Shown: positions 40,510 through 62,671, counted from the stretch's first letter. The stretch is DNA of 64,000 nt from Phenylobacterium sp. (GCF_030679875.1 NZ_JAUXSP010000006.1:129653-193652), one strand, 5' to 3'. Translations and numbers: made by a program. Notes: generated by a model not told the origin, from the sequence alone.

Positions 40510-40565
40510 CTTCGCATTGTTGAACTATTTTTTGACCTGAGCATTGAACGTCCCGAGGCCGCGCC

Positions 40566-43562: not shown

Positions 43563-43597
43563 CCAAATTCATATCCAGCTATTTTCAGGAGCGCGTT

Positions 43598-44365: not shown

Positions 44366-44368
44366 GAC

Positions 44369-45157: not shown

Positions 45158-45260
45158 GGACGGACTTTCCTCGCTGTGACGCCAGCTTAGCCCAAGAACG
45201 CGCCCGCGGCGAACGGGTCCCATATCGGGGTTTGACCACGGGGCAGGCGCGGGATATCGC

Positions 45261-46056: not shown

Positions 46057-46563
46057 CTATTCGCGGGTGTGGTCAGCCGGAATGACCGGCTCCGGTCCGG
46101 CCTTGCCCCACAGGACGATCTCATTACCCCAGGGGTCCCGGAAGGCGTGATTGAAGCCGTTGAACTCTGACCAATAGTGGTTGCGCCAGAGGATGGCTGC
46201 GCCGCGCGCCGCCGCTGCATCCAAGATCCTCTCAGGCGTGTCGTCATCGCTGATCAGGACCCAGATCCGCGGCTTGCGACCCTCCTGGCTGGCGCTGCGC
46301 GGCGCCACGCCCCCGGGCTCCGGGTGGGGACGGGCATTGTCCGCCTTGAAGATCCCCAGGTGCAGATTGCCGATCTCGCTGTCGGAGCCGTCCGGATTGC
46401 GGAACTGACCGCCCGGCACCATCCGGTGATAGAGGCCCTCCGGACGGGGATCGTTCCGCCAGCCGAACACCTCGGCATAGAAGGCGCCGGCGGCGGCCGG
46501 ATCATCGGCGACCAGATCGACAAAGATCAGGGTGTTGGGATGGCCCACGGGAACTCCTCTCAT
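46057..46563 (-). CDS. VOC (glyoxalase/bleomycin-resistance fold) family protein
   Basis: 168 aa. ...TLIFVDLVADDPAAAGAFYAEVFGWR... and a second beta-alpha-beta-beta-beta module ending ...FRDPWGNEIVLW. Confidence 0.65.
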   Translation of the reverse strand: MRGVPVGHPNTLIFVDLVADDPAAAGAFYAEVFGWRNDPRPEGLYHRMVPGGQFRNPDGSDSEIGNLHLGIFKADNARPHPEPGGVAPRSASQEGRKPRIWVLISDDDTPERILDAAAARGAAILWRNHYWSEFNGFNHAFRDPWGNEIVLWGKAGPEPVIPADHTRE

Positions 46564-46777: not shown

Positions 46778-47365
46778 GTGCAGGATCTCGCCGACCCGAT
46801 TCTTGACCAGCTGTTTCGCCAGGCGCGCAGCCATAACGCCTGGTCCGACGCCCCGATCAGCGAGGCGACCCTGCGCCAGCTGTATGATCTGCTGAAGTGG
46901 GCCCCAACCTCAGCCAACTGCGGGCCAGGGCGGTTCGTCTTTATCCAGTCGACCGAGGCCAAAGAAAAGCTGGCGCCGCACCTCTCACGGGCCAATCGGG
47001 AAAAGACCATGGCCGCGCCGGTCTGCGTCATCGTGGCCTATGATCTGGACTTCGCCGAACAGCTGCCCAAGCTGTTCCCCCACGATCCGAGCGCCAGGCA
47101 TTGGTTCGGCGACCCCCAGGTGCGGTTCGAAACCGCCCTGCGGAATTCGAGCCTGCAAGGCGCCTATCTGATCATGGCCGCTCGCAGTCTGGGGCTCGAC
47201 TGCGGTCCGATGTCAGGCTTCGACAACACGGGGCTGGACGAGGCCTTCTTCAGCGGGACGAACTGGCGGTCCAACTTCCTGGTGGCCCTCGGCCAGGGGC
47301 GTCCCGAAGGCGTCTATCCCCGCAACCCACGGCTCGAGTTCGAGGAGGCCTGCAAGGTGCTTTAG
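46778..47365 (+). CDS. Nitroreductase-family protein, RutE/YdjA-like (malonic semialdehyde reductase-like)
   Basis: 196 aa from the GTG at 46778 (AAGGAG at 46768-46773). ...[44 protein letters not shown]... matches the RutE-type subfamily pattern. Confidence 0.8.
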
Positions 47366-47411
47366 ATGGGGCTCGGCTGGTCCGGTCTGGGATTTCAGAC
47401 TAGACCAGAGG

Positions 47412-48239
47412 GTGACCGGCCCCGAAGAGCCGGCGTCGGAGGAAGGACAAGGCGTGGTGCGGAGCTTGAGCGTGAACCCTGAGGGCGCAGCCAGGGATGC
47501 TGGAACGGTGAGCATCATCACCGATTCCGGTGAATGGTCCCCTGAGCTCCAGAAGGCCCGCGCCTACGAACAGATCCTGCTCGACATCATCCTGGGGGAG
47601 TTGCCCCCTGGCGCGCGGCTGGACGAGCAGGCCCTGACCCGACGCTACAGTACGGGCCTGGCCGGTATTCGCGACGCCCTGGGCCGCCTGGCTCTGGAGG
47701 GCATGGTGGTGCGCCGGTCCCGGGCCGGAACCACCGTCTCGCCTCTGGATCTCGTCGACCTGCGGGAGGGCTATGAAGCCCGGGCGCTGATCGAGCCCCA
47801 TTGCGCGGCCATGGCCGCGCGTAACGCCTCGGCCGAAGAGATCGCCCAGATCGCCTCGACCTTTGACGACGCCGAGCGGGCCGATCGGGATCAGGACCGC
47901 CGGGCCCTGATCGCCATGGATCAGAGGTTCCACGCGCTGATCGCCAGGGCCAGCCGCAACGCCGCCCTGGCGCGGATTCTGATCCCCCTGCAGCACAAGG
48001 CCGCGCGGTTCTGGGTCTATTCGATGGGGACCACAACGCAGGAGGAGCGGCTGGCCGATATCTGCCTGCACCGGGCCGTGGCCCAGCGAATCGCCGCCCG
48101 CGACGCCGAGGGCGCCCGGGCTGGCATGATCCTGGTTTTGGGGACCATGCCGCAAACCGTGAAGCGCTCCCTGACCAGCTGGGGCGAAGAGGACGCGCAT
48201 TCGGGGAAACTGCAGCCCCCAGCAGCGCCCGCAGGTTGA
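47412..48239 (+). CDS. GntR-family transcriptional regulator (FadR/FCD subfamily)
   Basis: The winged helix ...ILLDIILGELPPGARLDEQALTRRYSTGLAGIRDALGRLALEGMVVRR is followed by an all-helical FCD domain. The true start is probably downstream of 47412 (for example GTG near 47508). Confidence 0.8.
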   Translation: MTGPEEPASEEGQGVVRSLSVNPEGAARDAGTVSIITDSGEWSPELQKARAYEQILLDIILGELPPGARLDEQALTRRYSTGLAGIRDALGRLALEGMVVRRSRAGTTVSPLDLVDLREGYEARALIEPHCAAMAARNASAEEIAQIASTFDDAERADRDQDRRALIAMDQRFHALIARASRNAALARILIPLQHKAARFWVYSMGTTTQEERLADICLHRAVAQRIAARDAEGARAGMILVLGTMPQTVKRSLTSWGEEDAHSGKLQPPAAPAG

Positions 48240-48307
48240 GCCCCGCCCAGGCGCTGATCCGCATCTGGGCGCCGGACGGGGAAATCTGAGCGTTGGAAGG
48301 GCGCCGC

Positions 48308-48339
48308 TGACATTCCAACTGAAATGTCACCAGACATTT
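48308..48339. promoter_or_regulatory. Array of TGACAT/ATGTCA half-sites, candidate operator of the adjacent GntR regulator
   Basis: TGACATT-N8-AATGTCA (48308-48329) overlaps AAATGTC-ACCA-GACATTT (48322-48339), followed by TTGACC (48340-48345). It lies ~105 nt upstream of the TonB receptor start. Confidence 0.4.
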
Positions 48340-48444
48340 TTGACCTGGGGCCGCGGTCGCGAGACCTTGTCTTTCAAGAGGCGCGCGGACGCGGGGATAA
48401 CCGCCACCCGGCGGAGGGTCCGCGCCCCTCCTGAAGAGGGCGAT

Positions 48445-50829
48445 ATGTCAAAGAGACTCATGTTGGTCGCGGGCGCCTCCCTGTCCGCGCTGATCGCAAA
48501 TCCTGGCCTGGCCTTGGCGCAGTCCGAAATGGTCGACGAGGTCGTGGTCACCGCGCAGGACCGCACCGGCCTGCTGGAGAAGACGCCGAGCAACAGCGTC
48601 TTTGGCCTGGACAAGGCGCTGATCGAAACGCCGCGTTCGGCGAGCTTCGCCAGCGACGTGACCCTGGAGCGTTACGGCATCGAGTCGATCGACGACCTGA
48701 CCGCGATCTCGCCGGGCACCTATACGGCCAGCTTCTACGGCGTCGCCGGCGCCCTGAACATTCGCGGCACCCTGGCGGAGAACTATTTCCGCGGCTTCAA
48801 GCGGATCGAAAACCGCGGGACCTATTCAACCCCCATCGCCAATGCGGCCCAGATCGAGATCGTCCGCGGGCCGCCGACGCCCATCTATGGGGCCGGCAAG
48901 GTCGGCGGCATGCTCAACTTCGTGCCCAAGTCCGGCCGCCTGGAAGGCGCCTATATCTCCGAGATCTCCGGCCAGGCCGACTTCACCGTCGGTTCCTACA
49001 ATCGCAAGGAGGCGTCGGGCCAGATCAGCATCCCGCTGAACTTCGGTGGCATGGAAGGGGGCTTGAACCTCTATGGCCAGGCGGAAAATTCCGACAGCTT
49101 CTACCGGGGTGTCTCGCCCCGCCGGGAAATCCTCCAGGCTTCGGTGGATCTGGAACTGGGCGGCGGCTGGCGCACCGCCTTCGGCGGCATGGGCTTCCAC
49201 TCCGACGGCGACGTGCAGACCCCGGGCTGGAACCGCCTGACCCAGGACCTGATCGACAATCAGACCTATATCACCGGCCGCGACACCAGCCTGGTCGACG
49301 CCAATGGCGACGGCAAGCTGACGCCCAATGAGATCGGCTTCTACCCCTACGCCTCGGCCATGTACCTCGCCTACTACGGCTTCCCGCAGAGCAGCGCCAA
49401 GCACACGCTGGATGTCGGCGTGGGGACCACCAAGCTCGATCCGCGCACGGTCTATATCAGCGATGCGGACTTCTCGAATTCGTGGACCCGGACCGGCTAT
49501 TTCGATCTCGTGCGGGACTTCGACAACGGCTCAGCGCTGAAGTTCCAGCTGTTCTATGACGAGCTGAAGAACAAGCGGTTCGTGTCCTACGGCTATCCGG
49601 CCATGTTCGACTCCCAGGTAGGCGAGGCCAGGGTCAGCTACGACTTCGACTATGACGTGGGCATGGTGACGTCGACGTCCTTTGTCGGCGCGTCCTACCG
49701 GGCCTTTGACGGACGGAGGATGGAGAGCTTCAACTCCGGCCTGATCGCGCTGGACCGCCGCGACATCGCCTTTGGCGCGACGCCCACCGACATCATCGAT
49801 GATCCCTTCTCGCCCGAGAGCTACGGCCTGCAGTGGGAGAACGACAACAGCTCCACCTGGAACCAGGCCGGGATCTTCTTCACCTCCGACATCTTCATCG
49901 GCGAGCGGCTGAACCTGATGGTCGGCGGCCGGTATGATCACTACGAGGTGGAGTCCGAGGATACGGGCCTGGTCAGCTATCAGCCGGCCGGCAAGTTCGA
50001 AGACAGCCAGGGCAAGGGGACCTACACCGCCTCCCTGACCTATCAGTTCGACTTCGGCCTGATGCCCTACATCACCTATGCCGAGACCGCGGCCCTGGAG
50101 ATGAGCCAGGCCGGCGATATCGCACCGTCGCTGATCCAGTCAGACGCCTGGCTCTCGGACTCCGACCTGGCCGAGGCCGGGGTGAAGTTCCAGCTGCTGT
50201 CGGGCTCCCTGGTGGGCTCGGTGGCCGGCTATCGGCAGAACCGCACCCAGCTGACCGGCGGGCCAAATCCTACCGTGCGGGGCACCCGGGCCAAGGGCGT
50301 GGAACTGGAGGTGCGCTACCTGGCCACGGACAACCTGTCCTTCACCTTCGCCGGCAACAGCCAGCGCACGACGGTCAAGGGGCCAGACAACAGCTTCGGC
50401 TACATCCCCTACTATGTGACCGGCGTGGACCCGGTGAACGCCTTTGGCGGCACCTATGTGGTCTGGGCGTTTTCCGGCCTGCCGGGCCGCGGGGGCGACT
50501 ATGCCTACACCCTGATCCCGCGCACCGTGCTCAGCCTGTATGGCAGCTACACCAGCGATGAGTATGACTGGGGCCAGCTGGGCGGCGTCTTCGGGGCCAC
50601 CCGGGTCAGCGAGACGGCCCAGACAGTAGAGAACCCGATCACCTATCCGGAATACACGACGGCCAACCTCTCGGTCTTCTATGCGCGCGGCCCGTTCCAC
50701 GCCTCGCTCAACGTCGATAACGTGTTCGATGAGCTGTTCTTCACCCCGGCTGCGGACTCCTACGCCAACCTGGCGGCCATCCCCGGCAAGGGCCGCGAGT
50801 GGCGGGTGACTCTGAAGCGCTCGTTCTGA
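48445..50829 (+). CDS. TonB-dependent receptor
   Basis: 794 aa from the ATG at 48445. Signal peptide MSKRLMLVAGASLSALIANPGLALAQ, TonB box DEVVVTAQ, plug blocks, a long barrel and terminal ...VTLKRSF. Confidence 0.9.
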   Translation: MSKRLMLVAGASLSALIANPGLALAQSEMVDEVVVTAQDRTGLLEKTPSNSVFGLDKALIETPRSASFASDVTLERYGIESIDDLTAISPGTYTASFYGVAGALNIRGTLAENYFRGFKRIENRGTYSTPIANAAQIEIVRGPPTPIYGAGKVGGMLNFVPKSGRLEGAYISEISGQADFTVGSYNRKEASGQISIPLNFGGMEGGLNLYGQAENSDSFYRGVSPRREILQASVDLELGGGWRTAFGGMGFHSDGDVQTPGWNRLTQDLIDNQTYITGRDTSLVDANGDGKLTPNEIGFYPYASAMYLAYYGFPQSSAKHTLDVGVGTTKLDPRTVYISDADFSNSWTRTGYFDLVRDFDNGSALKFQLFYDELKNKRFVSYGYPAMFDSQVGEARVSYDFDYDVGMVTSTSFVGASYRAFDGRRMESFNSGLIALDRRDIAFGATPTDIIDDPFSPESYGLQWENDNSSTWNQAGIFFTSDIFIGERLNLMVGGRYDHYEVESEDTGLVSYQPAGKFEDSQGKGTYTASLTYQFDFGLMPYITYAETAALEMSQAGDIAPSLIQSDAWLSDSDLAEAGVKFQLLSGSLVGSVAGYRQNRTQLTGGPNPTVRGTRAKGVELEVRYLATDNLSFTFAGNSQRTTVKGPDNSFGYIPYYVTGVDPVNAFGGTYVVWAFSGLPGRGGDYAYTLIPRTVLSLYGSYTSDEYDWGQLGGVFGATRVSETAQTVENPITYPEYTTANLSVFYARGPFHASLNVDNVFDELFFTPAADSYANLAAIPGKGREWRVTLKRSF

Positions 50830-50837
50830 TCTGACGA

Positions 50838-50863
50838 CCGCCGCCCCTTCCGGGGGGCGGCGG
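50838..50863 (+). terminator. GC-rich stem-loop between TonB receptor and MFS genes (attenuator/partial terminator)
   Basis: CCGCCGCCCC (50838-50847) pairs with GGGGCGGCGG (50854-50863). No U-tract. Confidence 0.35.
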
Positions 50864-50890
50864 GACTGTGTTCCTGTGTGGAGGCATGAC

Positions 50891-52201
50891 ATGCCCCTGA
50901 GCCAATGGCGTCCCTGGGTGCTTCTGGGCGTCTTCAGCCTGCTGCTGTTCCTGATCTCGGCGGCCACCTTCTCTTCGCTGGGCGTGGTGCTGCCGGCCAT
51001 GGTGGCCGATCAGGAATGGAGCTGGGCGCAGGCGGGTCTCGGCTTCACCCTGCTGGGCGCCTGCTGCGGCGGCTCGGCCTGGCTGCCGCCGATCATCATC
51101 CGCCGGTTCGGCGTGCGCGCCGCCCTGCTGGTGGGCACCGTCGTCATGGCCGTGGGCTTCATCTGCCTCTACCTGACGCAGAGCGTCTGGATCTACTTCC
51201 TCGGCACCGCCCTGTGTGGGGTGGCCTACCAGCTGATGGCTCTGATCCCCGGGACCCACGTCCTGGCCGCGGTGTTCCAGAAGCGGGCCATGGCCTTTGG
51301 GCTCTATTTCACCCTCGGCGGCCTGGGCGGCGTGGCGGGGCCCTGGATGGCGCTCGGCGTCATGGAGGCCACGGGCGGCGCCTGGCGACCCTTCTGGGCG
51401 CTGCAGGCGGTGGCGGCGCTGGCCATCGGCGTCATCTGCTCGATGCTGATCCCCAACAACGCCTGGCTGCGGGAGTCCTCTGAGAAGATCGACCGGGCCG
51501 TCAAGGCTGACGCCGAAGCCGCTGCGGCCGCCCCGGCCCAACCGCCGCTGGCTGTCTATCGCACGGTCCACGACTGGACGCTGAAACAGGCGATGGCCAC
51601 GCCGCAGTTCTACATCCTGGTCGCGGCCTACTTCGTCCATCTGCTGAGCGGGGTGACGGTCTCCAGCCTGTCGGTGGCCCACCTTTCAGAGCGGGGTGTG
51701 GCGGTCGGTATCGCGGCCGGTATGCTCAGCCTGGAGGGCCTGATGTCCACGGTCGCCCGCCTGGGCGGCGGCTTCATCGGCGACCGGATTGATCCCAAGT
51801 GGCTCCTGATGCTCGCCGTCGGGGTCCTGGGCGCCGGCTCCCTGGCCCTCAGCGTCGCCGACACCTACCTGCTGATGATCATCTATGCGGTGGGCACCGG
51901 CATCGGCTTTGGCCTGACGGCGCTGGCGGTGACCATCCTGCTGCTCAACTACTATGGGCGGAAGAACAACCTGGAGATCTTCTCCACGGTCTGCCTGGTC
52001 GGCGCCCTGTCGGCGCTCGGCCCCCTGATTGGCGGCTCCCTGCGCGATGCGCTCGGCAGCTTCACCCCGACCTTCCAGCTGTTCGGCGTCGTCGCCGCCG
52101 TGGTGTTCGTCGCCTCGCTCTTCATGCGCCCGCCGCAGATGAAGACCGAAGCGAACGCTCCGGCCGCCCCGGGCGCCGGCCTTGTCAACGATCCTGTCTG
52201 A
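50891..52201 (+). CDS. MFS transporter
   Basis: 436 aa, 12 predicted TM helices in a 6+6 arrangement with a central hydrophilic loop (...ESSEKIDRAVKADAEAAAAAPAQ...). ATG at 50891 follows GGAGG. Confidence 0.85.
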   Translation: MPLSQWRPWVLLGVFSLLLFLISAATFSSLGVVLPAMVADQEWSWAQAGLGFTLLGACCGGSAWLPPIIIRRFGVRAALLVGTVVMAVGFICLYLTQSVWIYFLGTALCGVAYQLMALIPGTHVLAAVFQKRAMAFGLYFTLGGLGGVAGPWMALGVMEATGGAWRPFWALQAVAALAIGVICSMLIPNNAWLRESSEKIDRAVKADAEAAAAAPAQPPLAVYRTVHDWTLKQAMATPQFYILVAAYFVHLLSGVTVSSLSVAHLSERGVAVGIAAGMLSLEGLMSTVARLGGGFIGDRIDPKWLLMLAVGVLGAGSLALSVADTYLLMIIYAVGTGIGFGLTALAVTILLLNYYGRKNNLEIFSTVCLVGALSALGPLIGGSLRDALGSFTPTFQLFGVVAAVVFVASLFMRPPQMKTEANAPAAPGAGLVNDPV

Positions 52202-52211
52202 GGCGTCCCCC

Positions 52212-53276
52212 ATGTATCAGAAGCCTTCCTCCCATAAGGAATTCGGCGTCTTCCTGCCGGTCGCCAATGGCGGCTGGATCATCTCGGAGACCTCGCCGCC
52301 GCTGGACGACCTGTGGACCCAGAACCGGGCCGCAGCGGTCACCGCCGACGAGGTCGGCATGGACTTCGTCATGTCCATGGGCAAGTGGCGCGGCTTCGGC
52401 GGTACGACCGACCACTGGGGCGCGTCCCTGGAGTCGGTGACCATGATGGCCGGCATCGCCGAGGCGACCAAGAATGTGAAGATCTGGGCCACCGTCCACC
52501 CCATGCTGCAGAACCCGGCGGTGACGGCCAAGATGATCTCGACCCTCGACCACATCAGCGGCGGGCGGGCTGGCCTGAACATCGTGGCCGGCGCCTATCG
52601 CGCCGAGTTCGACCAGATGGGCATGTGGGACGACAGTCTCGACCACGAGGCGCGCTACGCCCTGACTGAGGAATGGACCGCCGTCATCAAGCGCCTCTGG
52701 AAGGAGGACAGCGTCGATCACGCGGGCAGGTTCTTCAACATGAAGGACGCCAAGTCGAACCCCAAACCCCTGTCGCGGCCCCGGCCGGACCTGATCTGCG
52801 CGGGCCAGTCGGACCGTGGCTTCCAGTTCTCGGTGCGCGAGGCCGACATCTGCTTCATCGGCGGTCGTACGGCCGAGGAGCGCCGCGACAACAGCCTGCG
52901 GGCCAAGAAGGTCGCAGCCGACCTGGGCAAGTCGATCAAGACCTACGCCATGTGCACCATCGTCCACGGCGAAACCGACGCCAAGGCCGAGGCCATGGTC
53001 GAGCACTACAAGACCGGCACCGACATGGGCGCCATCCTGGAGATGCTGCGCAGCTGGGGCGTGCCGGCTGACAAGCTGGACGTGGTGGCCAAGCAGCAGG
53101 GCGCCTTCATGACCCACACCGCCGTGGGCTCGCCGGCCACCTGCGCCGAGCAGGTCCAGGAGTTTGTGGAGTTCGCCCAGCTGGACGGCCTAATGCTGAT
53201 CTTCCCCGACTATGTGGAGGGCCTGAAGATGTTCGGCGCCGAGATCCTGCCAGGCCTGCGTTCGGCCTTCGCATGA
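52212..53276 (+). CDS. LLM-class flavin-dependent monooxygenase, RutA (pyrimidine monooxygenase)-like
   Basis: 354 aa. Blocks FGVFLPVANGGWIIS, WRGFGGTTDHW..SLES.TMMAG, HISGGRAGLNIV and LICAGQSD line up with my recollection of E. coli RutA (IGVFVPIGNNGWLIS, LRGFGGKTEFW..NLES.TLMAG, SISGGRFGVNLV, VICAGQSD). Confidence 0.85.
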   Translation: MYQKPSSHKEFGVFLPVANGGWIISETSPPLDDLWTQNRAAAVTADEVGMDFVMSMGKWRGFGGTTDHWGASLESVTMMAGIAEATKNVKIWATVHPMLQNPAVTAKMISTLDHISGGRAGLNIVAGAYRAEFDQMGMWDDSLDHEARYALTEEWTAVIKRLWKEDSVDHAGRFFNMKDAKSNPKPLSRPRPDLICAGQSDRGFQFSVREADICFIGGRTAEERRDNSLRAKKVAADLGKSIKTYAMCTIVHGETDAKAEAMVEHYKTGTDMGAILEMLRSWGVPADKLDVVAKQQGAFMTHTAVGSPATCAEQVQEFVEFAQLDGLMLIFPDYVEGLKMFGAEILPGLRSAFA

Positions 53277-53935
53277 GCGCTCTGGCCTCGCCCTCGCCAG
53301 CCTCCGATGGGCTGGCGACCTGGATCACGCCGGCCCGCACCGCCCTGGTGATCATTGACATGCAGGTGGATTTCGCCGCGCCCGAGGGCCGTCTTGGCCA
53401 GTGGGGCGTCGATCTCTCCACCGTGCCGCCAGCCCTGGAAAAGGCGCAGGCCCTGGCGGCGGCGGCCCGGGCGGCGGGGGCCCCGGTGGTCTTTGTCGGC
53501 CTGTTCACGCGATCCGAAACCGACTCCGTCTCCTGGCGCGAGCGGATGCGCCGCCGGGGCGGCGATCCGGACTCCGATTCCGGCCTCTGCCGGGCCGGCG
53601 AGGTGGGGTCGGACTTCTATGGTCCCAAACCTCTGGCCGGCGATAAGGTGGTGGAGAAGGCCCGCTATTCCGGCTTCCACGACGCCCCGCTCGATGCGGT
53701 GCTGAAAGGTCTGGGGGTCGACACCCTGGTGGTGGCGGGCCTGACCACTGAGTGCTGTGTGGACTGCACGGTCCGCGACGCCTTCCATCTGGACTATCAT
53801 GTCTTCATCGCCGCCGACGCCTGCGCCGCCTATGAGGCCGAGGTGCATGCCGCGTCGCTGAAGGCCCTGGAACTGAACTGCGCGATCCTGGTCGAGACCG
53901 ACCAGGTGATCACCGCCTGGGAGGAGGCCGCGTAA
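53273..53935 (+). CDS. Isochorismatase-fold cysteine hydrolase (RutB-like amidohydrolase)
   Basis: 220 aa. Catalytic Asp in ALVIIDMQVDF, Lys in VVEKARYSGF, Cys in VAGLTTECCVDCTVRDA. ATGA overlap with the monooxygenase gene. Confidence 0.85.
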   Translation: MSALASPSPASDGLATWITPARTALVIIDMQVDFAAPEGRLGQWGVDLSTVPPALEKAQALAAAARAAGAPVVFVGLFTRSETDSVSWRERMRRRGGDPDSDSGLCRAGEVGSDFYGPKPLAGDKVVEKARYSGFHDAPLDAVLKGLGVDTLVVAGLTTECCVDCTVRDAFHLDYHVFIAADACAAYEAEVHAASLKALELNCAILVETDQVITAWEEAA

Positions 53936-55317
53936 TGGCCGATGGATTTCAACTGCCCGGCGCCCAGGCGCCGTTCACGGTCTCCGAGGCCGACCGCGCC
54001 GCCATCGCCGCGGCGATCAGTGAGACCGAGATCGTCGAGCTGGCCCTGGAGCTGGGCAATATTCCGAGCCCCGCCGGCCACGAGTTCGCCGCCGGCGAGT
54101 TCGTCCACGACTGGATGAAGCGCGAGGGCTTCAGCCCCCGCCGGGTCGGCGCGACGCCCGAGCGCAACAACATCATCGGGACCTATGGCGGAGCAGGCGA
54201 GGGCAAGAACCTGCTGTTCACCGCCCACCTGGACACCGAGGCGCCGACCTGGAATCCCGACCTCGACGCCTACAAGTACCGGCCCGAGACCCTGGACAAT
54301 CCGGAGTGGGAGAAGTGCTGGCTCGAGGACGGGGTCCTCTATGGCTATCCCATCGCCAATGACCGGGGGCCGATGAGCTGCTTCCTGATCGCGGCCAAGG
54401 CCCTGAAGACCGCCGGCTATGACCTGGCCGGCAAGCTCTATCTGACCGCCTGCCCCGGCGAGATCGGCCCTGAGCCCATCGAGGAGCACAGGGGCGTAGC
54501 CTATATGGGCAAGGATATTGGCGCCCATTACCTGTTCCACCACGGGGGCGTGGCGCCCGACTACGCCATCGCCGCCGAGGGCTGCGACTTTGGCCTGACC
54601 TGGGTCGGCTGCGGCTATGCCGTGTTCCGCTTCCGCCTGTGGGGGGAGGGGGTGTTCACCCCCCTGCTGACCCAGCCGGAGAAGTCGGGGGACCACCCCA
54701 ATCCGATCTATCGCCTGGGCGCGCTGACCGACGCCATCCACCAGTGGAGCCGCCAGTACGAGACCGACAGCGCCTATGAGAGCGCCGGCGGCGTGGCCCT
54801 GCCAAAGGCGCAGATCGCCGCGGTGCGCGGGGGCATTCCCTACGCCTTCGGGGCCGGCACCGAGCTGGTGAACCTCTATCTGGAGGTGGGCTTGAACCCC
54901 CGCCAACGCATCGCCGATCTGCAGCACTCCCTGGAGCGCATGGTCCGCGCCGCAGGTCTGGGCGAGGTGGATATCGAGCCCGTCGTGGTCCGCCACGGCT
55001 TTGAGGCCGACGCCGCCGAGGTCGCCCCCCTGGTCGGCGCGGTGGACGCCGCTACCCGCCTGTCGCTGGGCCACCCGGTGCAGCGGGCCGCGCCGGTCTA
55101 TTCCAGCATGTGGCGGGACCACAACGTCTTCAACATGCAGCGCATTCCGGCCATCACCACCGGCTTCAAGCGCTGGCGGCCGACCCCGAAGGACCTGACC
55201 GACAGCGCGCTGGTCTATGCGCTGACGGCGCTGGCGGTCTGTGGCCGGGCGGAGAGCGCCCAGGCCAAGAGCGGCCCGCCCCCCGTCTATGGCGACAACC
55301 CGTTCGGGAACGACTGA
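53935..55317 (+). CDS. M20-family metallohydrolase (ArgE/DapE/carbamoylase-type amidohydrolase)
   Basis: 460 aa. The metal-binding context LLFTAHLDTE and an M20-like catalytic/dimerisation layout. The G-R-G-x-x-D-x-K-G loop appears modified (IANDRGPMSCF). TAATG overlap upstream and TGATG overlap downstream. Confidence 0.75.
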   Translation: MADGFQLPGAQAPFTVSEADRAAIAAAISETEIVELALELGNIPSPAGHEFAAGEFVHDWMKREGFSPRRVGATPERNNIIGTYGGAGEGKNLLFTAHLDTEAPTWNPDLDAYKYRPETLDNPEWEKCWLEDGVLYGYPIANDRGPMSCFLIAAKALKTAGYDLAGKLYLTACPGEIGPEPIEEHRGVAYMGKDIGAHYLFHHGGVAPDYAIAAEGCDFGLTWVGCGYAVFRFRLWGEGVFTPLLTQPEKSGDHPNPIYRLGALTDAIHQWSRQYETDSAYESAGGVALPKAQIAAVRGGIPYAFGAGTELVNLYLEVGLNPRQRIADLQHSLERMVRAAGLGEVDIEPVVVRHGFEADAAEVAPLVGAVDAATRLSLGHPVQRAAPVYSSMWRDHNVFNMQRIPAITTGFKRWRPTPKDLTDSALVYALTALAVCGRAESAQAKSGPPPVYGDNPFGND

Positions 55318-55835
55318 TGGGTCAGGCGACAAACTTCGGCGACCTCGAGATCGGCGCCCCCTTCGAAGCGCCGGCCTGGCGCGCGGCCATGGGCGCCTTC
55401 GCCAGCGGCGTGGTCATCGTCACCACAGAGGACGAGGAGGGCCGGCCCGTGGGCACCACGGTCAGCGCCTTCTCTTCGGTCTCGCTGGATCCGCCCCTGC
55501 TGCTGGTCTGCCTGGACCACAAGAGCCGCACCCGGGCGGCCGTGCGTCGCTCAGGTCATTTCTGCATCAACATCCTGGCCGCCGGCCAAGGGGGGCTCGC
55601 CCGTCTGTTCGCCGGCCCCGGCGCCACTGACCGGTTCGCCGAGGTGGCGATCACGCCGGGCGTCCTGGGCGCGCCGCAGATCACCGGCGCCCTGGCCAGC
55701 ATCGACTGTCGCCTGCACTCCCTGCACGCGGCCGGCGACCACGACATCCTGATCGGCCGGGGCCTGAACATTCAGGCCGCCGCCGGCGAGCCCCTCATCT
55801 ACAGCCAGGGCCGGTTCCTGGGCCCAGAGGACTGA
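55317..55835 (+). CDS. Flavin reductase (HpaC/RutF-like, flavin_reduct domain)
   Basis: 172 aa. ...AMGAFASGVVIVTTEDEEGRPVGTTVSAFSSVSLDPPLLLVCLD... is the canonical domain sequence. Confidence 0.85.
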   Translation: MGQATNFGDLEIGAPFEAPAWRAAMGAFASGVVIVTTEDEEGRPVGTTVSAFSSVSLDPPLLLVCLDHKSRTRAAVRRSGHFCINILAAGQGGLARLFAGPGATDRFAEVAITPGVLGAPQITGALASIDCRLHSLHAAGDHDILIGRGLNIQAAAGEPLIYSQGRFLGPED

Positions 55836-55847
55836 AGGTCAAAGACC

Positions 55848-56660
55848 ATGGGATATGACGTTCTGGACGTGAAGCCGATGACCCGCCGGATCGGCGCCGA
55901 GGTGTTCGGGCTCGATCTTGGCAAGCCGCTGAGCAACCGGCAGACCGCCGAGCTGCGCGAGGCGCTGGCCAATCACCAGGTGCTGTTCTTCCGCGACCAG
56001 GAGATGGATCACGACGCCCACAAGGCGGTCGGCCGGCTGTTTGGCGAACTGGCCATCCACTCGGCCATCGCCGGCATCGAGGGCCATCCCGAGATCGTCG
56101 CCATCCACGCTGATGCCGACTCCAAGTTCGTGGCCGGCGAGAACTGGCATTCGGACCTGACCTGCGATCCGGCCCCGCCGCTGGGCTCTATCCTCTACAT
56201 GCCGGTGGTGCCCGAGAGCGGCGGCGACACCGTCTTCGCCTCGATGTACGCGGCCTATGACACCCTGTCGGAGCGGATGAAGGCCTATCTGGAGGGGCTG
56301 CAGGCGGTCCACGACGCCAACCCCGTCTATCAGAAGCTCTTCCCGGATCTGGACCGGAAGTACAACCGCTCGGTCCATCCGGTGATCCGCACCCATCCGG
56401 TGACGGGCAAGAAGCTGATCTTCGTCAACCCGTCCTACACCACCCACATCGAGGGCATGCCCGAGGACGAGAGCGCGGCCATCCTTAACTTCCTCTACGT
56501 CCACTGCATGAACCCCAACTACCAGGTCCGCTTCCGCTGGCAGGCCAATTCGGTGGCCTTCTGGGACAACCGCTGCACCTGGCACCAGGCCATCTGGGAC
56601 TACTTCCCGGATACGCGCTCAGGGTTCCGGGTGACGGTGGCGGGGGATAAGCCGTTTTAA
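55848..56660 (+). CDS. TauD/TfdA-family Fe(II)/2-oxoglutarate dioxygenase
   Basis: 270 aa. Iron ligands in ENWHSDLT and a distal His (...RCTWHQAI...); ...GGDTVFASMYAAYDTLS... is typical. Confidence 0.9.
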   Translation: MGYDVLDVKPMTRRIGAEVFGLDLGKPLSNRQTAELREALANHQVLFFRDQEMDHDAHKAVGRLFGELAIHSAIAGIEGHPEIVAIHADADSKFVAGENWHSDLTCDPAPPLGSILYMPVVPESGGDTVFASMYAAYDTLSERMKAYLEGLQAVHDANPVYQKLFPDLDRKYNRSVHPVIRTHPVTGKKLIFVNPSYTTHIEGMPEDESAAILNFLYVHCMNPNYQVRFRWQANSVAFWDNRCTWHQAIWDYFPDTRSGFRVTVAGDKPF

Positions 56661-58679: not shown

Positions 58680-59513
58680 TCACGCCTCGGGGAAGCTGAT
58701 GCTGGTCGAGACGCCGGCCCAGTCGCCGATCTCGGTGGTCATCGCGCCCATCTTGCGCATGGCGTAGTGCAGGGCGTCCGCGCCCAGCAGCAGATGCAGG
58801 GGCGCGTCCTTTGCCCCGGCGATCTTCAGGATGGCGGCGGCGGCGCGGGCCGGGTCGCCGCTTTCCTGGCCGGCGTGTTCGGCCAGCAGCTTGGGCGCCC
58901 TGTGGGCGGTCTCGGCATAGTCGTCGATCACCTGGGCGGCGCGTATCAGCGAGCGGCCGGCATAGTCGGTGCGCATGCCGCCGGGCGCCACATTGGTCAC
59001 CTGGATATTGAGGTGCGCCACCTCCTGGGCCAGGGCCTCGCCCAGGCCTTCCAGGGCGAACTTGCTGGCGCAGTAGACGCCCGTCCCCGACCAGGCGGCC
59101 AGGCCGCTGACCGAGGTGATGTTGATCACATGGCCTGAGCGGCGGGCGCGCATACCCGGCAGGGCGGCGCGCAGAACGGCCAGGGGGCCGATCAGATTGG
59201 CCTCGAATTGAGCGCGGGCCTCATCGAGGCTGGTCTCTTCCACCGCGCCGGTCAGGCCATAGCCGGCATTGTTGACCAGGATGTCGATCCCGCCGGCCAG
59301 GGCCTCGGCGCCCGCGACGGCGGCCTGGACGGCGGCCTCATCGGTGACGTCAGCGACGAACCCCTGGGCGTTTGCATGGAGCGCTGCGAAGGCCGCCAGA
59401 TCAGCGGGCTTGCGGACCGTGCCAGCGACGATATCGCCAGCCTCAAGGGCGGCCAGCGCCAGGGCGCGGCCGAGGCCGCCGCTGACGCCGGTGATGAACC
59501 AGGTGCGCGTCAT
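58680..59513 (-). CDS. SDR-family oxidoreductase
   Basis: 277 aa. WFITGVSGGLGRALA, NNAG, YCASKFA. Confidence 0.85.
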   Translation of the reverse strand: MTRTWFITGVSGGLGRALALAALEAGDIVAGTVRKPADLAAFAALHANAQGFVADVTDEAAVQAAVAGAEALAGGIDILVNNAGYGLTGAVEETSLDEARAQFEANLIGPLAVLRAALPGMRARRSGHVINITSVSGLAAWSGTGVYCASKFALEGLGEALAQEVAHLNIQVTNVAPGGMRTDYAGRSLIRAAQVIDDYAETAHRAPKLLAEHAGQESGDPARAAAAILKIAGAKDAPLHLLLGADALHYAMRKMGAMTTEIGDWAGVSTSISFPEA

Positions 59514-59514
59514 G

Positions 59515-60369
59515 TCAGTAGGGCGCGTCGCCCTTGGCCCACAGGCGATGCATGGTCCGGAAATACTTGGTGTCGTCGTAGAGGGTGCCGGTGTGCAGGG
59601 TGCAGCGGTTATCCCACATCAGCACGTCGCCGACCTGCCACTTGTGGCGGAAGACGAAGGGGTCGCTGGTCATGAATTCCACCAGCTCGTCCACCAGCTC
59701 CAGGCCCTTGGGGTTCTCCATCCCCACCACCTCGGTCACCGTGCCCGTGGAGGGCCACAGCGCCTTGCGGCCATCGGCCGGGTGGGTGCGGATCAGGGGA
59801 TGCTCGACATCGGGATTGTCGCGCTTGAGCTCGTCCGACAGCTCCTGGCGGCCGAATTCCCGGGTGGCCATGAAGTGCTGGTAGGAGTGGTGCAGGCGGA
59901 GACCGTCCAGTTCTTTCTGGCGCTCAGGGCTGAGCGCGTTCCAGGCCGCGCAGCCATCGGCCAGCAAGGTGTCGGAGCCCTCGGCCGGCACCTCCACCGC
60001 ATAGAGCATGGTGCACATCACCGGCTGCGCCTTGTAGGAATAGTCGGTGTGCCAGCCGACCCCGTCATTGTGGGCGCCGATGGGTTTGCCATCCACCTCG
60101 CGGTTGGACAGGACGAAGACCTTGGGCTGGCCGGGCAGGGTGAACTGCTTCTGAGTGTGGTCCTCGGGCTCGCCGAACAGGGCCACGAAATCCACCAGCT
60201 GGGCCGGCGTCATGTCCTGGCCGCGCAGCAGTATGGCGCCGTGCCGATGGAAGGTGTCGACCACGCCGGCCAGGGTCTCGCCATCGGCGCGGGCGAGGTC
60301 CACGTCCAGGATCTCGGCGCCGAAACCGGGCTTCAGCTCTTGGGTCTTCAGTTGGACGGCGGTGGTCAT
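59515..60369 (-). CDS. TauD/TfdA-family Fe(II)/2-oxoglutarate dioxygenase (second paralogue)
   Basis: 284 aa from MTTAVQLKTQELKPGFGAEILDVDL. Iron ligands in VGWHTDYSY and ...DNRCTLHTG... 1-nt gap to the SDR gene. Confidence 0.85.
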   Translation of the reverse strand: MTTAVQLKTQELKPGFGAEILDVDLARADGETLAGVVDTFHRHGAILLRGQDMTPAQLVDFVALFGEPEDHTQKQFTLPGQPKVFVLSNREVDGKPIGAHNDGVGWHTDYSYKAQPVMCTMLYAVEVPAEGSDTLLADGCAAWNALSPERQKELDGLRLHHSYQHFMATREFGRQELSDELKRDNPDVEHPLIRTHPADGRKALWPSTGTVTEVVGMENPKGLELVDELVEFMTSDPFVFRHKWQVGDVLMWDNRCTLHTGTLYDDTKYFRTMHRLWAKGDAPY

Positions 60370-60632: not shown

Positions 60633-61859
60633 ATGAGCGCGCACCTCTTGAACGACGCCTTTTTCGACGGGCTTTCCACCTCCATGGAGGGGTTTGAGAC
60701 CGCCGAGACCCTGCCGCCGGCCTGCTATGTGGACGCCGGATTCTACGAGTTCGAGAAGGAGGCGGTGTTCAACCACGAGTGGCTCTGCGTCGGGCGCGAG
60801 TCCTGGGTGAAGACGGCCGGCGACTACTTCACCACCACGATCATCGGCGAGCCCGTCATCGTGGCCCGCACCCGCAAGAACGAACTGGTGGCCATGAGCT
60901 CGGTCTGCCAGCACCGGGCCATGCTGGTGGCCGAGGGGCACGGTAATACCCGCGGCTTCGTCTGCCCCTATCACCACTGGACCTATGGCCTGGACGGCAA
61001 GCTGGTGAACGCCCCGGCCATGGAGCAGACCTGCGGCTTCGACAAGAAGAAGATCGCCCTGCCGAGGTTCAAGGTCGAGGTGTGGCTGGGCTTCGTGTTC
61101 ATCAATTTCGACCTGGACGCCGCGCCCTTGGGACCGCGCCTGACCGAGATCGAGAGCGCGCTGGCCGGCTACGATCTGGCCAACGCCGAGGGGCCGCGCC
61201 CCGATCCGGCCGCCAAGCTCCCCTGGAACTGGAAGGTGATGTTCGAGAACAATAACGACGGCTATCACGCCAGCCGTCTGCACCAGGGGCCGCTGCACGA
61301 CTTCGTACCCAGCGCCCAGTCGGTGTTCCCCGAGCCGCCCCACGGCGCGGCGGGCTATCTGCGCTTCAACGGCACCCTGCATGCCGACGCCAGCTTCAAC
61401 GTGACGCAAAAGGCCCTGCTGCCGGTCTTCCCCAAGCTGACCGAGGTCGACCGCAACCGGATGACCTTTGCGAACATCCCGCCGACGCTTTCGCTCGTCG
61501 TCACCAGCGACATGGTCATCTATCTGATCGTCCGCGCCGACGGGGCCGAGACCCACGAGATGGACACCGGCCTGCTGTTTGCGCCCGGCGCCATGGAAGA
61601 CCCGGCCTTCGAGCACAAGCTGGCCATGAACATGGCCGCGGCCGGATCCATCATCGCCCAGGACCTGCATGTGGACGGCCTGGTCCAGGCGGGCCTGCGC
61701 TCGCGCTTCGCCATCCGTGGCCGCTATTCTTGGCAGGAGGGGGCCCAGATCGCCTTCAACCGCTGGCTGACGCCGCGCTATCAGGGGACCTGGAAGGCGA
61801 TGCAGGCCGACGTCGGCGCAAAGGCGCCCGTCGCCGCGCCGGCCCGGGTTCCGGCATGA
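60633..61859 (+). CDS. Rieske [2Fe-2S] non-heme iron oxygenase, alpha subunit
   Basis: 408 aa. The Rieske motif is CQHRAMLV...(17 aa)...CPYHHWTY. The catalytic-domain motif is ...ENNNDGYHASRLH... ATG at 60633. Confidence 0.85.
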   Translation: MSAHLLNDAFFDGLSTSMEGFETAETLPPACYVDAGFYEFEKEAVFNHEWLCVGRESWVKTAGDYFTTTIIGEPVIVARTRKNELVAMSSVCQHRAMLVAEGHGNTRGFVCPYHHWTYGLDGKLVNAPAMEQTCGFDKKKIALPRFKVEVWLGFVFINFDLDAAPLGPRLTEIESALAGYDLANAEGPRPDPAAKLPWNWKVMFENNNDGYHASRLHQGPLHDFVPSAQSVFPEPPHGAAGYLRFNGTLHADASFNVTQKALLPVFPKLTEVDRNRMTFANIPPTLSLVVTSDMVIYLIVRADGAETHEMDTGLLFAPGAMEDPAFEHKLAMNMAAAGSIIAQDLHVDGLVQAGLRSRFAIRGRYSWQEGAQIAFNRWLTPRYQGTWKAMQADVGAKAPVAAPARVPA

Positions 61860-62671
61860 GCGGGCCGGCTGAACGCCTGCCGGTGGTCTTCTTCGGTCAC
61901 GGCAGCCCGATGATCGCCATCGAGACCAACGACACCACCGCGGCCTGGGGCGCCATTGGGGCGTCAATCGGCAAGCCCCGGGCCATTCTCTGCATCTCGG
62001 CCCACTGGCTGACCCGCGGCGTCGGCGTGACCGCCATGGCCCAGCCGCGAACCATCCACGACTTCGGCGCTTCCTTCCCTCAGGCCCTGTTCAACGTGCA
62101 GTACCCAGCGCCCGGCGATCCGGCCCTGGCGCGGCGCGTGGCCGAACTGCTGGCGCCGCTGCCGGTGAGCCAGGACGAGGGCTGGGGCCTGGACCATGGG
62201 ACCTGGTCGGTGCTGTCCAAGGCCTATCCCAAGGCCGATGTGCCGGTGGTGCAGCTGTCGATGGACGCCAGCAAGCCGCCGGCCTGGCACTATGAGATGG
62301 GCGCCAAGCTCAGCCCCCTGCGAGATGAGGGCGTGCTGATCGTCGCCACCGGCAACATCGTCCACAACCTGCCGGCCATGGACTGGGGCGCCCGCCACCG
62401 TCCAGCCTTTGACTGGGCCGAGGCCTTCAACGCCCACATCAAGGACGCCATCGCCGCCGACGATCCCCAGAAGGCGGTGGCCTATGAGGCGTTCGGCGAG
62501 GCGGCCAGTCGGTCGGTCCCGACGCCGGACCACTACTGGCCGCTGCTCTATGCGCTTGGCGCCCGGATGCCCGGCGACCGGGCGGTCTTTGGCCCCGACC
62601 ATATCGAGCATGGCTCGCTCAGCATGACCACGGTGATGCTCGACAGCCGCCCGGCCGCCCAGGCCGCCTGA
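61856..62671 (+). CDS. LigB-superfamily class III extradiol dioxygenase (YgiD / 4,5-DOPA dioxygenase type)
   Basis: 271 aa. The LPVVFFGHGSPMIAIETND opening and ...LDHGTWSVL... and ...ATGNIVHNL... blocks are typical of the family. ATGA overlap with the Rieske gene. Confidence 0.85.
   Translation: MSGPAERLPVVFFGHGSPMIAIETNDTTAAWGAIGASIGKPRAILCISAHWLTRGVGVTAMAQPRTIHDFGASFPQALFNVQYPAPGDPALARRVAELLAPLPVSQDEGWGLDHGTWSVLSKAYPKADVPVVQLSMDASKPPAWHYEMGAKLSPLRDEGVLIVATGNIVHNLPAMDWGARHRPAFDWAEAFNAHIKDAIAADDPQKAVAYEAFGEAASRSVPTPDHYWPLLYALGARMPGDRAVFGPDHIEHGSLSMTTVMLDSRPAAQAA

Follow-up and report, generated by a model that had tools for sequence, protein, structure and literature searches.

A conserved Rut-like gene island of Phenylobacterium sp. 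with a NaaA-type aminohydrolase and ring oxygenases, possibly for the breakdown of a fused pyrimidinedione

Gene content and layout of the locus

The 64,000-nucleotide stretch of Phenylobacterium sp. DNA analysed here (NZ_JAUXSP010000006.1:129653-193652, hereafter the window) carries between positions 46778 and 56660 nine genes, which the initial annotation had read as a RutE-like gene, a GntR/FCD regulator and a seven-gene unit built on a Rut-like ring-opening core. The open reading frames (ORFs) and independent gene calls on the identical contig (Logan SRR13727518) agree on the coordinates of all nine, and Pfam and NCBIfam confirmed the domains claimed for all nine proteins, the match of the M20 protein being weak. 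The sole ambiguous start is that of the GntR regulator, at 47412 (GTG, 275 aa) or at 47472 (255 aa, external gene call). The gene content thus stands apart from this start, but the delimitation as seven genes does not, because the conserved set runs past 46778-56660 on both sides. Indeed, this region is roughly the first half of a larger, mobile and conserved island of at least 17 kb, extending from about 46057 to beyond 64000. The island genes are as follows (LLM, luciferase-like monooxygenase; MFS, major facilitator superfamily; SDR, short-chain dehydrogenase/reductase).

46057..46563, minus strand: VOC/glyoxalase-fold protein (Pfam Glyoxalase), a conserved island member
46778..47365, plus strand: RutE-type nitroreductase-fold flavoprotein (NCBIfam malonic semialdehyde reductase), a lineage-specific addition
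47412..48239 (alternative start 47472), plus strand: GntR/FCD transcription regulator (Pfam GntR and FCD)
48445..50829, plus strand: TonB-dependent outer-membrane receptor (Pfam Plug and beta-barrel)
50891..52201, plus strand: MFS inner-membrane transporter, oxalate:formate/monocarboxylate-like (Pfam MFS_1)
52212..53276, plus strand: RutA-like FMNH2-dependent LLM, proposed to cleave a ring amide (Pfam, NCBIfam)
53273..53935, plus strand: isochorismatase-fold cysteine amidohydrolase, a proposed ureido hydrolase (Pfam Isochorismatase)
53935..55317, plus strand: NaaA-family M20-like aminohydrolase, proposed to hydrolyse an aryl amine to a hydroxyl (PDB relative NaaA)
55317..55835, plus strand: NAD(P)H:flavin reductase, proposed to supply FMNH2 (Pfam Flavin_Reduct, 149 bits)
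55848..56660, plus strand: TauD/TfdA-family Fe(II)/2-oxoglutarate dioxygenase 1, TauD1 (Pfam TauD, 237 bits)
58680..59513, minus strand: SDR oxidoreductase (Pfam adh_short; NCBIfam PRK06180, 340 bits)
59515..60369, minus strand: TauD/TfdA-family dioxygenase 2, TauD2 (gene call, Pfam, NCBIfam and PDB matches)
60633..61859, plus strand: alpha-only Rieske non-haem iron oxygenase (Rieske and Ring_hydroxyl_A domains)
61856..62671, plus strand: YgiD/LigB-type extradiol (4,5-DOPA-type) dioxygenase (NCBIfam 322.8 bits, cut-off 233)
62697..63788, plus strand: FmdA/AmdA-family (acetamidase/formamidase-like) amidase (Pfam FmdA_AmdA)
63803..64000, plus strand: AraC-family regulator, 5' part, cut by the window end (tblastn with the AraC protein of locus L041)

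The RutE-like, receptor, MFS, LLM, hydrolase, M20, reductase and TauD1 genes all lie on the plus strand. The overlaps of 4, 1 and 1 nt reported earlier for the four central genes (ATGA, TAATG and TGATG) are seen in the junction sequences GCATGAGC, GTAATGGC and CTGATGGG, and the remaining spacers are of 61 nt between receptor and transporter and of 10 and 12 nt. This spacing suggests that the genes form an operon.

Conservation and variants of the island

Eighty Caulobacteraceae species loci were collected through their LLM and the window proteins were mapped onto them; the counts given here and below refer to the 54 loci with enough flanking sequence. LLM and hydrolase genes are adjacent in all 54 and the receptor and MFS genes are found in 43, while the NaaA-like gene is present in 36, TauD in 33 and the flavin reductase in 23, some otherwise complete clusters being without the latter. 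A GntR orthologue lies upstream of the receptor in 25 loci. In 23-29 loci the operon is joined by the block of VOC, SDR, TauD2, Rieske, YgiD and FmdA-like genes, mostly as a single compact unit of 14 kb: orthologues were counted in 29 loci for SDR, 27 for TauD2 (69-77% identity), 26 each for Rieske and YgiD and 23 for the FmdA-like amidase (79-85% identity), and VOC orthologues share 72-80% identity within Caulobacter clusters. An AraC regulator follows the FmdA gene in many loci, and the truncated AraC of the window is 55% identical over 66 aa to the one at this place in L041 (tblastn). The expectation that gene order is conserved in relatives is therefore borne out by strong synteny, and the arrangement is not due to chance.

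Outside the family, orthologues of the receptor occur in Parvibaculum, Hyphomonas and Kozakia, those of SDR and TauD2 in Parvibaculum and Kozakia, and those of YgiD, FmdA (69%) and VOC (78%, on a plasmid) in Kozakia. In Parvibaculum, Rieske, TauD, SDR and TauD2 genes stand beside a receptor-MFS-LLM-hydrolase-NaaA-reductase run and a TonB-ExbBD set; YgiD, VOC and FmdA were not found within the stretch read. The Kozakia baliensis plasmid holds every island member together with a PDR/VanB-type reductase and an unrelated nitroreductase. On plasmids of Paraburkholderia graminis and A. baumannii the core MFS-LLM-hydrolase-NaaA-reductase is found with an AraC gene, and AraC relatives (31-46% identity) flank the Paraburkholderia, Acinetobacter and Kozakia plasmid clusters. 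Hence the full set (Rieske, YgiD, VOC, SDR, TauD2, FmdA) recurs in Caulobacter (among others in strains Root343 and AP07 and in C. segnis of the CC215 type), Phenylobacterium and Kozakia, and LLM-hydrolase-NaaA-like-reductase is a portable core, carried by Acinetobacter and Paraburkholderia plasmids. A rearranged form was seen in Hyphomonas sediminis (L087, 1136-17202), with two copies of the NaaA-like gene (identity to the window copy 69% and 58%), two MFS genes and a second TonB receptor; a PhoD phosphatase gene is located just upstream of its GntR gene.

Shorter architectures also exist, namely GntR-receptor-MFS-LLM-hydrolase (10 loci), LLM-hydrolase alone (as in C. vibrioides) and LLM-hydrolase-NaaA-like. 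They bear on a first alternative, close to the initial annotation, which is the scavenging of nitrogen from a monocyclic pyrimidine, modified nucleobase or nucleoside such as uracil, thymine, orotate, barbiturate or a hydantoin-like ureide. In this alternative LLM and reductase would act as RutA and RutF, the hydrolase as RutB and the M20 protein as a carbamoylase, RutE would detoxify malonic semialdehyde and TauD would hydroxylate the base. Short operons without a NaaA-like gene favour it; they imply that the LLM-hydrolase pair also serves substrates needing no aryl-amine step. So do two features of the neighbourhood which hint at nucleosides. Ribokinase-like PfkB genes adjoin the cluster in six loci (L041 at 20014-20949, L086 at 9998-10906, L043, L048, L069 and L081), with scores of 276 and 254 bits against the TIGR02152 cut-off of 299.65, and the Paraburkholderia copy includes an outer-membrane protein annotated OmpK in RefSeq, without an NCBIfam match; OmpK is a member of the Tsx nucleoside-channel family. 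The ribokinase-like neighbours hint more generally at a ribose- or ribityl-bearing substrate and, together with the OmpK-annotated protein, would fit a nucleobase-like compound with a ribityl or ribosyl group. Against the pyrimidine alternative, the aromatic-ring oxygenases that travel with the operon would be left without a role.

Several Caulobacter genomes hold two or three LLM paralogues. One paralogous set (loci L063-L082, for example L075 of Caulobacter zeae) is a short GntR-receptor-MFS-LLM-hydrolase operon with a divergent SDR gene downstream and without NaaA-like or TauD genes; it may take a simpler, perhaps monocyclic, substrate and would be a better candidate for the pyrimidine idea. 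Another (L002, L003 and L092; Caulobacter sp. RHG1 and C. segnis) consists of LLM-hydrolase(-NaaA-like) genes without transporters, beside LptC; it adjoins a run of genes whose products are an AMP-binding enzyme, an acyl carrier, an aminotransferase and an epimerase, and no more than a few kb away is an EgtB-EgtD fusion for ergothioneine synthesis.

The LLM monooxygenase

The closest characterised relative of the LLM is RutA, which supports the pyrimidine alternative and also the RutA-type opening of a fused pyrimidinedione proposed below. Indeed, RutA is its best PDB match (E 9e-64; 36% identity to the E. coli protein) and its best NCBIfam model, although the score of 260.8 bits against TIGR03612 is far below the equivalog cut-off of 498.3. 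Among 1.84 billion cluster representatives searched, 229 matched at E<=1e-30, of which ~20 are nearer to the query than E. coli RutA. In a neighbour-joining tree (a distance tree of 50%-identity representatives rooted on SsuD, without support values), the window LLM falls within a RutA-like superclade, away from SsuD and outside the RutA orthogroup. It forms one clade with all LLMs found beside the same genes, in Caulobacter, Hyphomonas and Parvibaculum and on plasmids of Acinetobacter, Paraburkholderia and Kozakia. This clade is part of a set of uncharacterised RutA-like subfamilies, and the set as a whole is sister to the clade with E. coli RutA. The LLMs of Phenylobacterium metagenome-assembled loci are 93-96% identical to that of the window. 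In the 50%-identity representative library, the best full-length match is 45% identical and only fragments reach 57-82%; the 90% library holds >1600 relatives, and the 70-95% family of the query may be represented by a fragment in the former.

Residue correspondences, here and below, were taken from MAFFT alignments. The O2 site of RutA is formed by T105, N134, V136, F224 and L65 (PMC10005588, PMC7662398). These correspond to T94, N123, V125, F215 and M54 of the window LLM; the pocket residues are kept in outer LLM groups as well and are thus necessary but not specific for a RutA-type enzyme. RutA W139, which borders the substrate cavity, is replaced by A128. At this position 13 of 17 RutA-clade sequences have Trp, and all 10 cluster-clade sequences have Ala or Ser followed by Tyr or Phe, consistent with a substrate different from that of RutA. 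Both the separate clade and the loss of W139 speak against the pyrimidine alternative. The LLM therefore remains a RutA homologue in the sense of closest characterised relative and shared superclade, but it belongs to a clade of its own.

The dimethylsulfone monooxygenase SfnG comes second among the NCBIfam models (168 bits), and its structure 8t0u was also matched in the PDB. This, the LLM-flavin reductase pairing and the two TauD-family genes are what would be expected if the island scavenged organosulfur compounds (sulfonates, sulfate esters or sulfones), the TauDs and an SsuD/SfnG-like LLM with its reductase freeing sulfite and TonB-dependent uptake serving as in Pseudomonas ats/sft. However, RutA scores higher, and the position of the LLM in the tree is away from SsuD. 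Among characterised enzymes, the LLM is nearest to RutA by model, structure and tree, and not to the sulfonate or nitrilotriacetate enzymes, in line with the initial annotation. Moreover, three amidohydrolases and the ring-cleavage enzymes would be useless for desulfonation, and the regulators are of GntR and AraC type and not CysB, Cbl, SsuR or SfnR.

The hydrolase, the flavin reductase and the RutE-type protein

The hydrolase reaches 98.2 bits against the RutB model TIGR03614 (cut-off 377.95) and about as much, 92 bits, against the biuret hydrolase model, again far below the cut-off. It is 32% identical to RutB over 185 aa, with the Asp-Lys-Cys triad intact (D29/K129/C162 aligned with D24/K133/C166 of RutB), and its PDB matches are 3irv, RutB and biuret hydrolases. 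The nearest characterised relatives, RutB and biuret hydrolase, all cleave ureido or carbamoyl amides. As for the reductase, it is 41% identical to RutF over 127 aa and scores 105.8 bits against TIGR03615 (cut-off 254.75), the HsaB and FerA models scoring higher than RutF and all three staying below their own cut-offs; it appears to be a generic HpaC/RutF-class enzyme. Thus the relationship to RutB and RutF claimed before is genuine as homology, but neither protein reaches the equivalog level, and the shortfall of LLM, hydrolase and reductase against the RutA, RutB and RutF cut-offs weighs against the pyrimidine alternative.

The RutE-type protein, by contrast with its neighbours, is a true family member, with 296 bits against the NCBIfam malonic semialdehyde reductase cut-off of 152 and 55% identity to E. 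coli RutE. A BluB-type flavin destructase was considered for this nitroreductase and rejected (BluB 31.7 bits). An above-cut-off RutE next to the cluster is what the pyrimidine alternative predicts; the adjacency, however, was found in 3 of the 54 loci, all of them Phenylobacterium, so that the earlier observation of a RutE-like gene just upstream is correct for the window and restricted to this genus. No homologue of RutC, RutD, RutG or RutR was detected in the 64-kb window by tblastn of the E. coli proteins (E<1e-3), as the initial annotation had said. With these four absent and the RutA/B/F cut-offs missed, a canonical rut operon was rejected: plausibly, the chemistry of the LLM is RutA-like and that of the hydrolase RutB-like, in a locus that is not a rut operon.

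The M20 protein is a NaaA homologue

The M20 protein had been taken for a carbamoylase or deacylase. This assignment fails, since the carbamoylase, DapE and ArgE models score at most 31 bits (NCBIfam), on which ground a carbamoylase/DapE-type enzyme was rejected, and since the protein is a full-length homologue of 5-nitroanthranilate aminohydrolase NaaA. Apart from NaaA, no PDB relative comes below E 0.01; the NaaA match (E 5.4e-86) aligns residues 33-439 with 21-424, at an identity of 45% in the HMMER alignment and 39% with MAFFT. Both the window protein and its plasmid-borne orthologues retain the family-invariant motifs HLDT, GPM, GE and SMWRD. NaaA acts on an electron-poor aromatic acid, in which it converts the amino group next (ortho) to the carboxylate into a hydroxyl, by a mechanism thought to be of the nucleophilic aromatic substitution (SNAr) type. 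By homology, the M20 protein is best described as a NaaA-family aryl-amine aminohydrolase and, at about 40-45% identity, its substrate almost certainly differs from that of NaaA. That the protein is of NaaA type and fits no carbamoylase model speaks against the pyrimidine alternative, which calls for a carbamoylase.

NaaA relatives occur in N-heterocycle contexts elsewhere. In Moorella glycerini (L096, 5685-12401) a homologue 52% identical to NaaA lies between subunits of a xanthine-dehydrogenase-type molybdenum hydroxylase, beside genes for the decarboxylase UbiD and the regulator PucR. The arrangement resembles an anaerobic route for an N-heterocycle through deamination, decarboxylation and hydroxylation, with a logic like that of the lumichrome (Lum) pathway discussed below. 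In Conexibacter the neighbours are hydantoinase A/B and amidases. A true naa-type context (cupin, DLH and FAA hydrolase) was seen in Oceanibacterium, and the window cluster has no cupin or DLH gene. A protein search with reconstructed NaaA gave a broad family spread, with no Nocardioides among the 120 matches listed.

Dioxygenases, transporter and remaining island proteins

Against the taurine dioxygenase model (cut-off 313), TauD1 scores 264.6 bits and TauD2 174 bits, and TauD1 is about equally near E. coli TauD and RdpA. TauD1 keeps the Fe and 2-oxoglutarate ligands H99/D101/H255 and R266 as well as H70 and R270, while Y73, N95 and S158 are lost; the TauDs retain the anion-binding pair H70/R270 without the ligands of the taurine amine. 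A taurine dioxygenase was therefore rejected on score and residues, which further reduces the case for organosulfur scavenging, an explanation that we consider very improbable.

The MFS protein gave weak NCBIfam matches to lactate, OFA and monocarboxylate transporters, and the Rieske protein weak best matches to CntA/GbcA and ring-hydroxylating alpha subunits. The YgiD-type protein matches E. coli YgiD in the PDB (E 4.5e-84) and the FmdA-like amidase 3b9t (E 1e-76) and acetamidases. PDB searches of the VOC, FmdA-like and YgiD-like proteins gave no substrate information, VOC being without an informative relative.

This gene complement raises another alternative, namely that the island degrades some other aromatic amide, lactam or amine natural product (for example a quinolone, a metallophore, a cyclic imide or a compound of kynurenine-derived or anthranilamide type). 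In that case the LLM would cut an amide or C-N bond outside a pyrimidine, and an anthranilate-like intermediate would lose its amino group to the NaaA-like enzyme. The island has a NaaA member, Rieske, YgiD and VOC proteins, three amide hydrolases and GntR/AraC regulators of a kind typical for aromatic-acid catabolism; furthermore, the RutA-like LLM subfamilies are many and mostly uncharacterised, and the anion-binding pair of the TauDs suits carboxylates. Yet the only characterised close relative of the LLM opens the uracil ring, the nearest relatives of the paired hydrolase act on ureido groups, and no candidate compound of this kind accounts for all genes as economically as a fused pyrimidinedione. 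We regard this alternative as unlikely, though it deserves more credit than the pyrimidine one.

Proposed pathway and substrate

The reading we prefer, to which we give somewhat less than an even chance, is that the island serves the uptake and oxidative opening of a fused pyrimidinedione, followed by ureido hydrolysis, aryl-amine hydrolysis and ring cleavage. A scarce, poorly soluble or anionic heterocycle would enter through the TonB-dependent receptor in the outer membrane and the MFS transporter in the inner membrane. The LLM, with FMNH2 from the reductase and O2 (through a flavin-N5-peroxide, as in RutA), would cleave the N3-C4 amide of the fused pyrimidine-2,4-dione to give an ortho-ureido aromatic carboxylate, from which the isochorismatase-fold hydrolase would strip the carbamoyl/ureido group in the manner of RutB and biuret hydrolase, leaving an ortho-amino aromatic carboxylate. 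In E. coli, RutB yields aminoacrylate, a readily hydrolysed enamine, and RutC and RutD assist its hydrolysis. An aryl amine cannot hydrolyse spontaneously in this way, and a dedicated step would be needed: the NaaA-type metallo-aminohydrolase is proposed to swap the aryl NH2 for OH by nucleophilic aromatic substitution, in the role of RutC and RutD. The two TauD-type dioxygenases and the SDR may oxidise or dealkylate substituents, since TauD-type enzymes hydroxylate a carbon beside a heteroatom and would fit methyl oxidation or N-dealkylation. The Rieske protein would then hydroxylate and YgiD/VOC cleave the remaining (benzenoid) ring, the FmdA-like amidase would free the last amide nitrogen from an oxamide/oxamate-type product, and GntR and AraC would control expression.

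The presence of a NaaA-like gene exactly where RutC and RutD are missing, together with the co-conserved ring oxygenases, speaks for a fused aromatic pyrimidinedione. The proposal is also favoured by the kinship of the LLM with RutA, its conserved O2 pocket and its replaced W139, by the intact triad of the hydrolase and its ureido- and carbamoyl-cleaving relatives, by the NaaA relatives in N-heterocycle clusters, by the portable core and the recurrence of the full set, and by the Lum precedent. The same co-travelling oxygenases, with the second TauD, the SDR, the amidase and the AraC gene, argue against a simple monocyclic pyrimidine. The pyrimidine-like or nucleobase substrate of the initial annotation is hence disfavoured, and we consider it improbable.

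Within the preferred class, lumichrome/alloxazine or riboflavin appears to be the best-fitting substrate, although flavin or lumichrome specifically is a tentative and rather doubtful choice; lumazines, quinazolinediones and other fused pyrimidinediones are alternatives. In the flavin version, the NaaA-type enzyme would deaminate an aminoquinoxaline carboxylate by SNAr, and an FMN-dependent enzyme would open another flavin or alloxazine. Lumichrome is soluble to ~20 uM and bioactive at nanomolar levels (PMC12746152), properties which TonB-dependent uptake would suit.

Several observations weigh against the fused pyrimidinedione, and especially against its flavin version. The substrate is proposed from family chemistry, and the parallel of LumI and LumM with the hydrolase and the M20 protein is drawn at the level of reaction steps. 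LLM-hydrolase variants without a NaaA-like gene exist, as described above. The MFS protein resembles carboxylate carriers whereas lumichrome is neutral, and the Rieske protein is closest to C-N cleaving oxygenases of the CntA/GbcA type and not to ring dihydroxylases. By domain, no thiamine pyrophosphate (TPP) decarboxylase, xanthine-oxidase or pyrone-degrading genes are found among the cluster genes, and an Rfam scan of the whole window gave no FMN riboswitch or other element.

If correct, the proposal would add a second, oxidative way of removing the pyrimidinedione ring from fused heterocycles (flavins, alloxazines, lumazines, quinazolinediones), give the widespread NaaA-like hydrolases a first physiological role outside nitroaromatic degradation and explain how a Rut-like core dispenses with RutC and RutD. 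It would also supply candidate genes with which Alphaproteobacteria abundant in fresh water and the rhizosphere may turn over lumichrome and riboflavin. At nanomolar levels lumichrome acts as a signal for plant growth and as a quorum-sensing mimic, and in the flavin version the TonB-dependent receptor would ensure high-affinity uptake of this rhizosphere signal. The island is moreover mobile, on plasmids in Acetobacteraceae, Burkholderiaceae and Acinetobacter. Whatever the substrate, the gene set is large, conserved and amenable to experiment, and no characterised counterpart was found for it.

Non-coding elements and neighbouring genes

The following non-coding elements and inserted genes were noted.

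47377..47408: inverted repeat CTGGTCCGGTCTG/CAGACTAGACCAG in the RutE-GntR gap, with 13-nt arms, 85% complementary; candidate operator or terminator
48308..48336: overlapping palindromes TGACATTCCA-N2-TGAAATGTCA and TGTCACCAGACA upstream of the receptor gene (repeat search); candidate GntR operator of the GT-N-AC type
50838..50863, plus strand: perfect GC-rich stem-loop CCGCCGCCCC-TTCC-GGGGGGCGGCGG in the 61-nt receptor-MFS spacer (read from the sequence)
57223-57800, minus strand: ParE/ParD toxin-antitoxin pair (gene calls, Pfam), an insertion outside the conserved set
57891-58661, plus strand: GNAT acetyltransferase (gene calls, Pfam), an insertion outside the conserved set

With no mismatch allowed, the 12-mer TGTCACCAGACA occurs only once in the window, and its near matches are no commoner than in shuffled sequences. 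The stem-loop was missed by the terminator scan because no T-run follows it; it could set the receptor and the downstream genes at different expression levels. A consensus scan found no promoter-like sites, and terminator-like sites are no commoner than in shuffles.

ParDE and GNAT occupy the gap between TauD1 and SDR, where Caulobacter loci hold the VOC gene. In the window the VOC gene is upstream, beside RutE, which indicates that the island has been rearranged in this lineage. Further upstream, 42196-45223 encodes a CMD-family protein, two SDRs and an M48 peptidase; these genes are syntenic only among Phenylobacterium loci and probably lie outside the island. An ectoine/hydroxyectoine-like run, unrelated to the island, occupies 36199-42032, with a class-III aminotransferase (EctB-like), a PhyH dioxygenase (EctD-like), an ACT-domain aspartokinase, an SSF transporter and, at 37597-37989, a 130-aa ORF that is EctC-sized by length.

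Comparison with known systems

Literature on sets of RutA, isochorismatase, TauD and flavin reductase, on a Caulobacter pyrimidine oxygenase and on lumichrome with Caulobacter yielded no characterised pathway of this composition, in agreement with the initial annotation. An A. baumannii genomics paper mentioning Rut genes was set aside as it concerns the canonical rut operon.

With the E. coli Rut system (rutABCDEFG, RutR) the island shares a two-component LLM and flavin reductase followed by an isochorismatase-fold cysteine amidohydrolase, that is, oxidative ring opening and then ureido hydrolysis, as well as the O2-pocket residues and, in the window lineage, a RutE-type nitroreductase nearby. 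It differs in that none of LLM (36% identity), hydrolase (32%) and reductase (41%) is an equivalog, in that RutC, RutD, RutG and RutR are missing and in the addition of the NaaA-type enzyme, two TauDs, Rieske, YgiD, VOC, SDR and FmdA-like proteins, the TonB-dependent receptor, the MFS transporter and GntR/AraC regulators. The 5-nitroanthranilate pathway of Bradyrhizobium sp. JS329 (NaaA, NaaB, NaaC) is matched by the full-length NaaA homologue and, in the proposed reaction, by hydrolytic replacement of an NH2 ortho to a carboxylate on an electron-poor aromatic ring; unlike it, the island has neither a NaaB-type cupin dioxygenase nor a NaaC lactonase. Other LLM-flavin reductase systems open N-heterocycles ahead of an amidase, namely PyrA/PyrE for pyridine in Arthrobacter and TpdAB with TpdC for tetramethylpyrazine in Rhodococcus. 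To our knowledge, the PyrA/PyrE and TpdAB clusters have no NaaA-type, TauD-type or TonB-dependent components.

The Lum pathway of Nocardioides simplex has been reconstituted: from 7-carboxylumichrome, LumH makes a ureido-quinoxaline by opening the pyrimidine ring, LumI (24 kDa) hydrolyses the urea and LumM (52 kDa) converts 3-amino-6-methylquinoxaline-2,7-dicarboxylate into the 3-oxo acid (Sinha et al. 2025, PMC12746152). The later steps comprise a decarboxylation, hydroxylation by a xanthine oxidase, dioxygenation by a Rieske enzyme, extradiol ring cleavage and the release of oxamate (PMC12746152). The proposed route would resemble it in three formal steps that remove the ring of a fused pyrimidinedione, and then in Rieske, extradiol and oxamate/oxamide-type amide chemistry. 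However, the opening by LumH (80 kDa) is hydrolytic and reversible, whereas that of the island, with LLM and reductase, would be oxidative and irreversible. The domains of LumU (P450), LumK/L (TPP decarboxylase) and LumJ (xanthine oxidase) are not among the cluster genes, and the Lum set in turn is without TauD, TonB-dependent receptor and MFS genes. As of 2026, the lumichrome catabolic genes described are actinobacterial only (PMC12746152, PMC13492142).

A Gram-negative precedent is Stadtman's 'Pseudomonas RF' of the 1960s. As summarised in PMC12746152, the riboflavin C-ring was degraded first and the ribose removed afterwards, and a quinoxalinedione gave a pyrone and oxamide; that summary mentions neither genes nor purified enzymes, and variants are expected. 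As far as this summary goes, C-ring-first degradation in a Gram-negative organism would fit the ring-removal module of the island, its candidate dealkylating oxygenases, its ring-cleavage dioxygenases, its amidase, the ribokinase gene of some loci and the lack of pyrone-degrading genes. The summary reports urea, whereas an isochorismatase-type hydrolase is expected to give carbamate/NH3. That the island comprises Gram-negative genes for flavin or lumichrome degradation, and the basis of this C-ring-first route, is an idea we put forward with considerable reserve.

At the family level, the island belongs to known groups in two respects only, the NaaA-type hydrolases and the RutA-like LLM superclade. 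In terms of systems, it would be Rut-like in its first two steps and Lum-like in its overall logic, and what appears to be new is that ring opening of the Rut type is continued by an aryl-amine hydrolase and enzymes of ring cleavage and is combined with TonB-dependent uptake.

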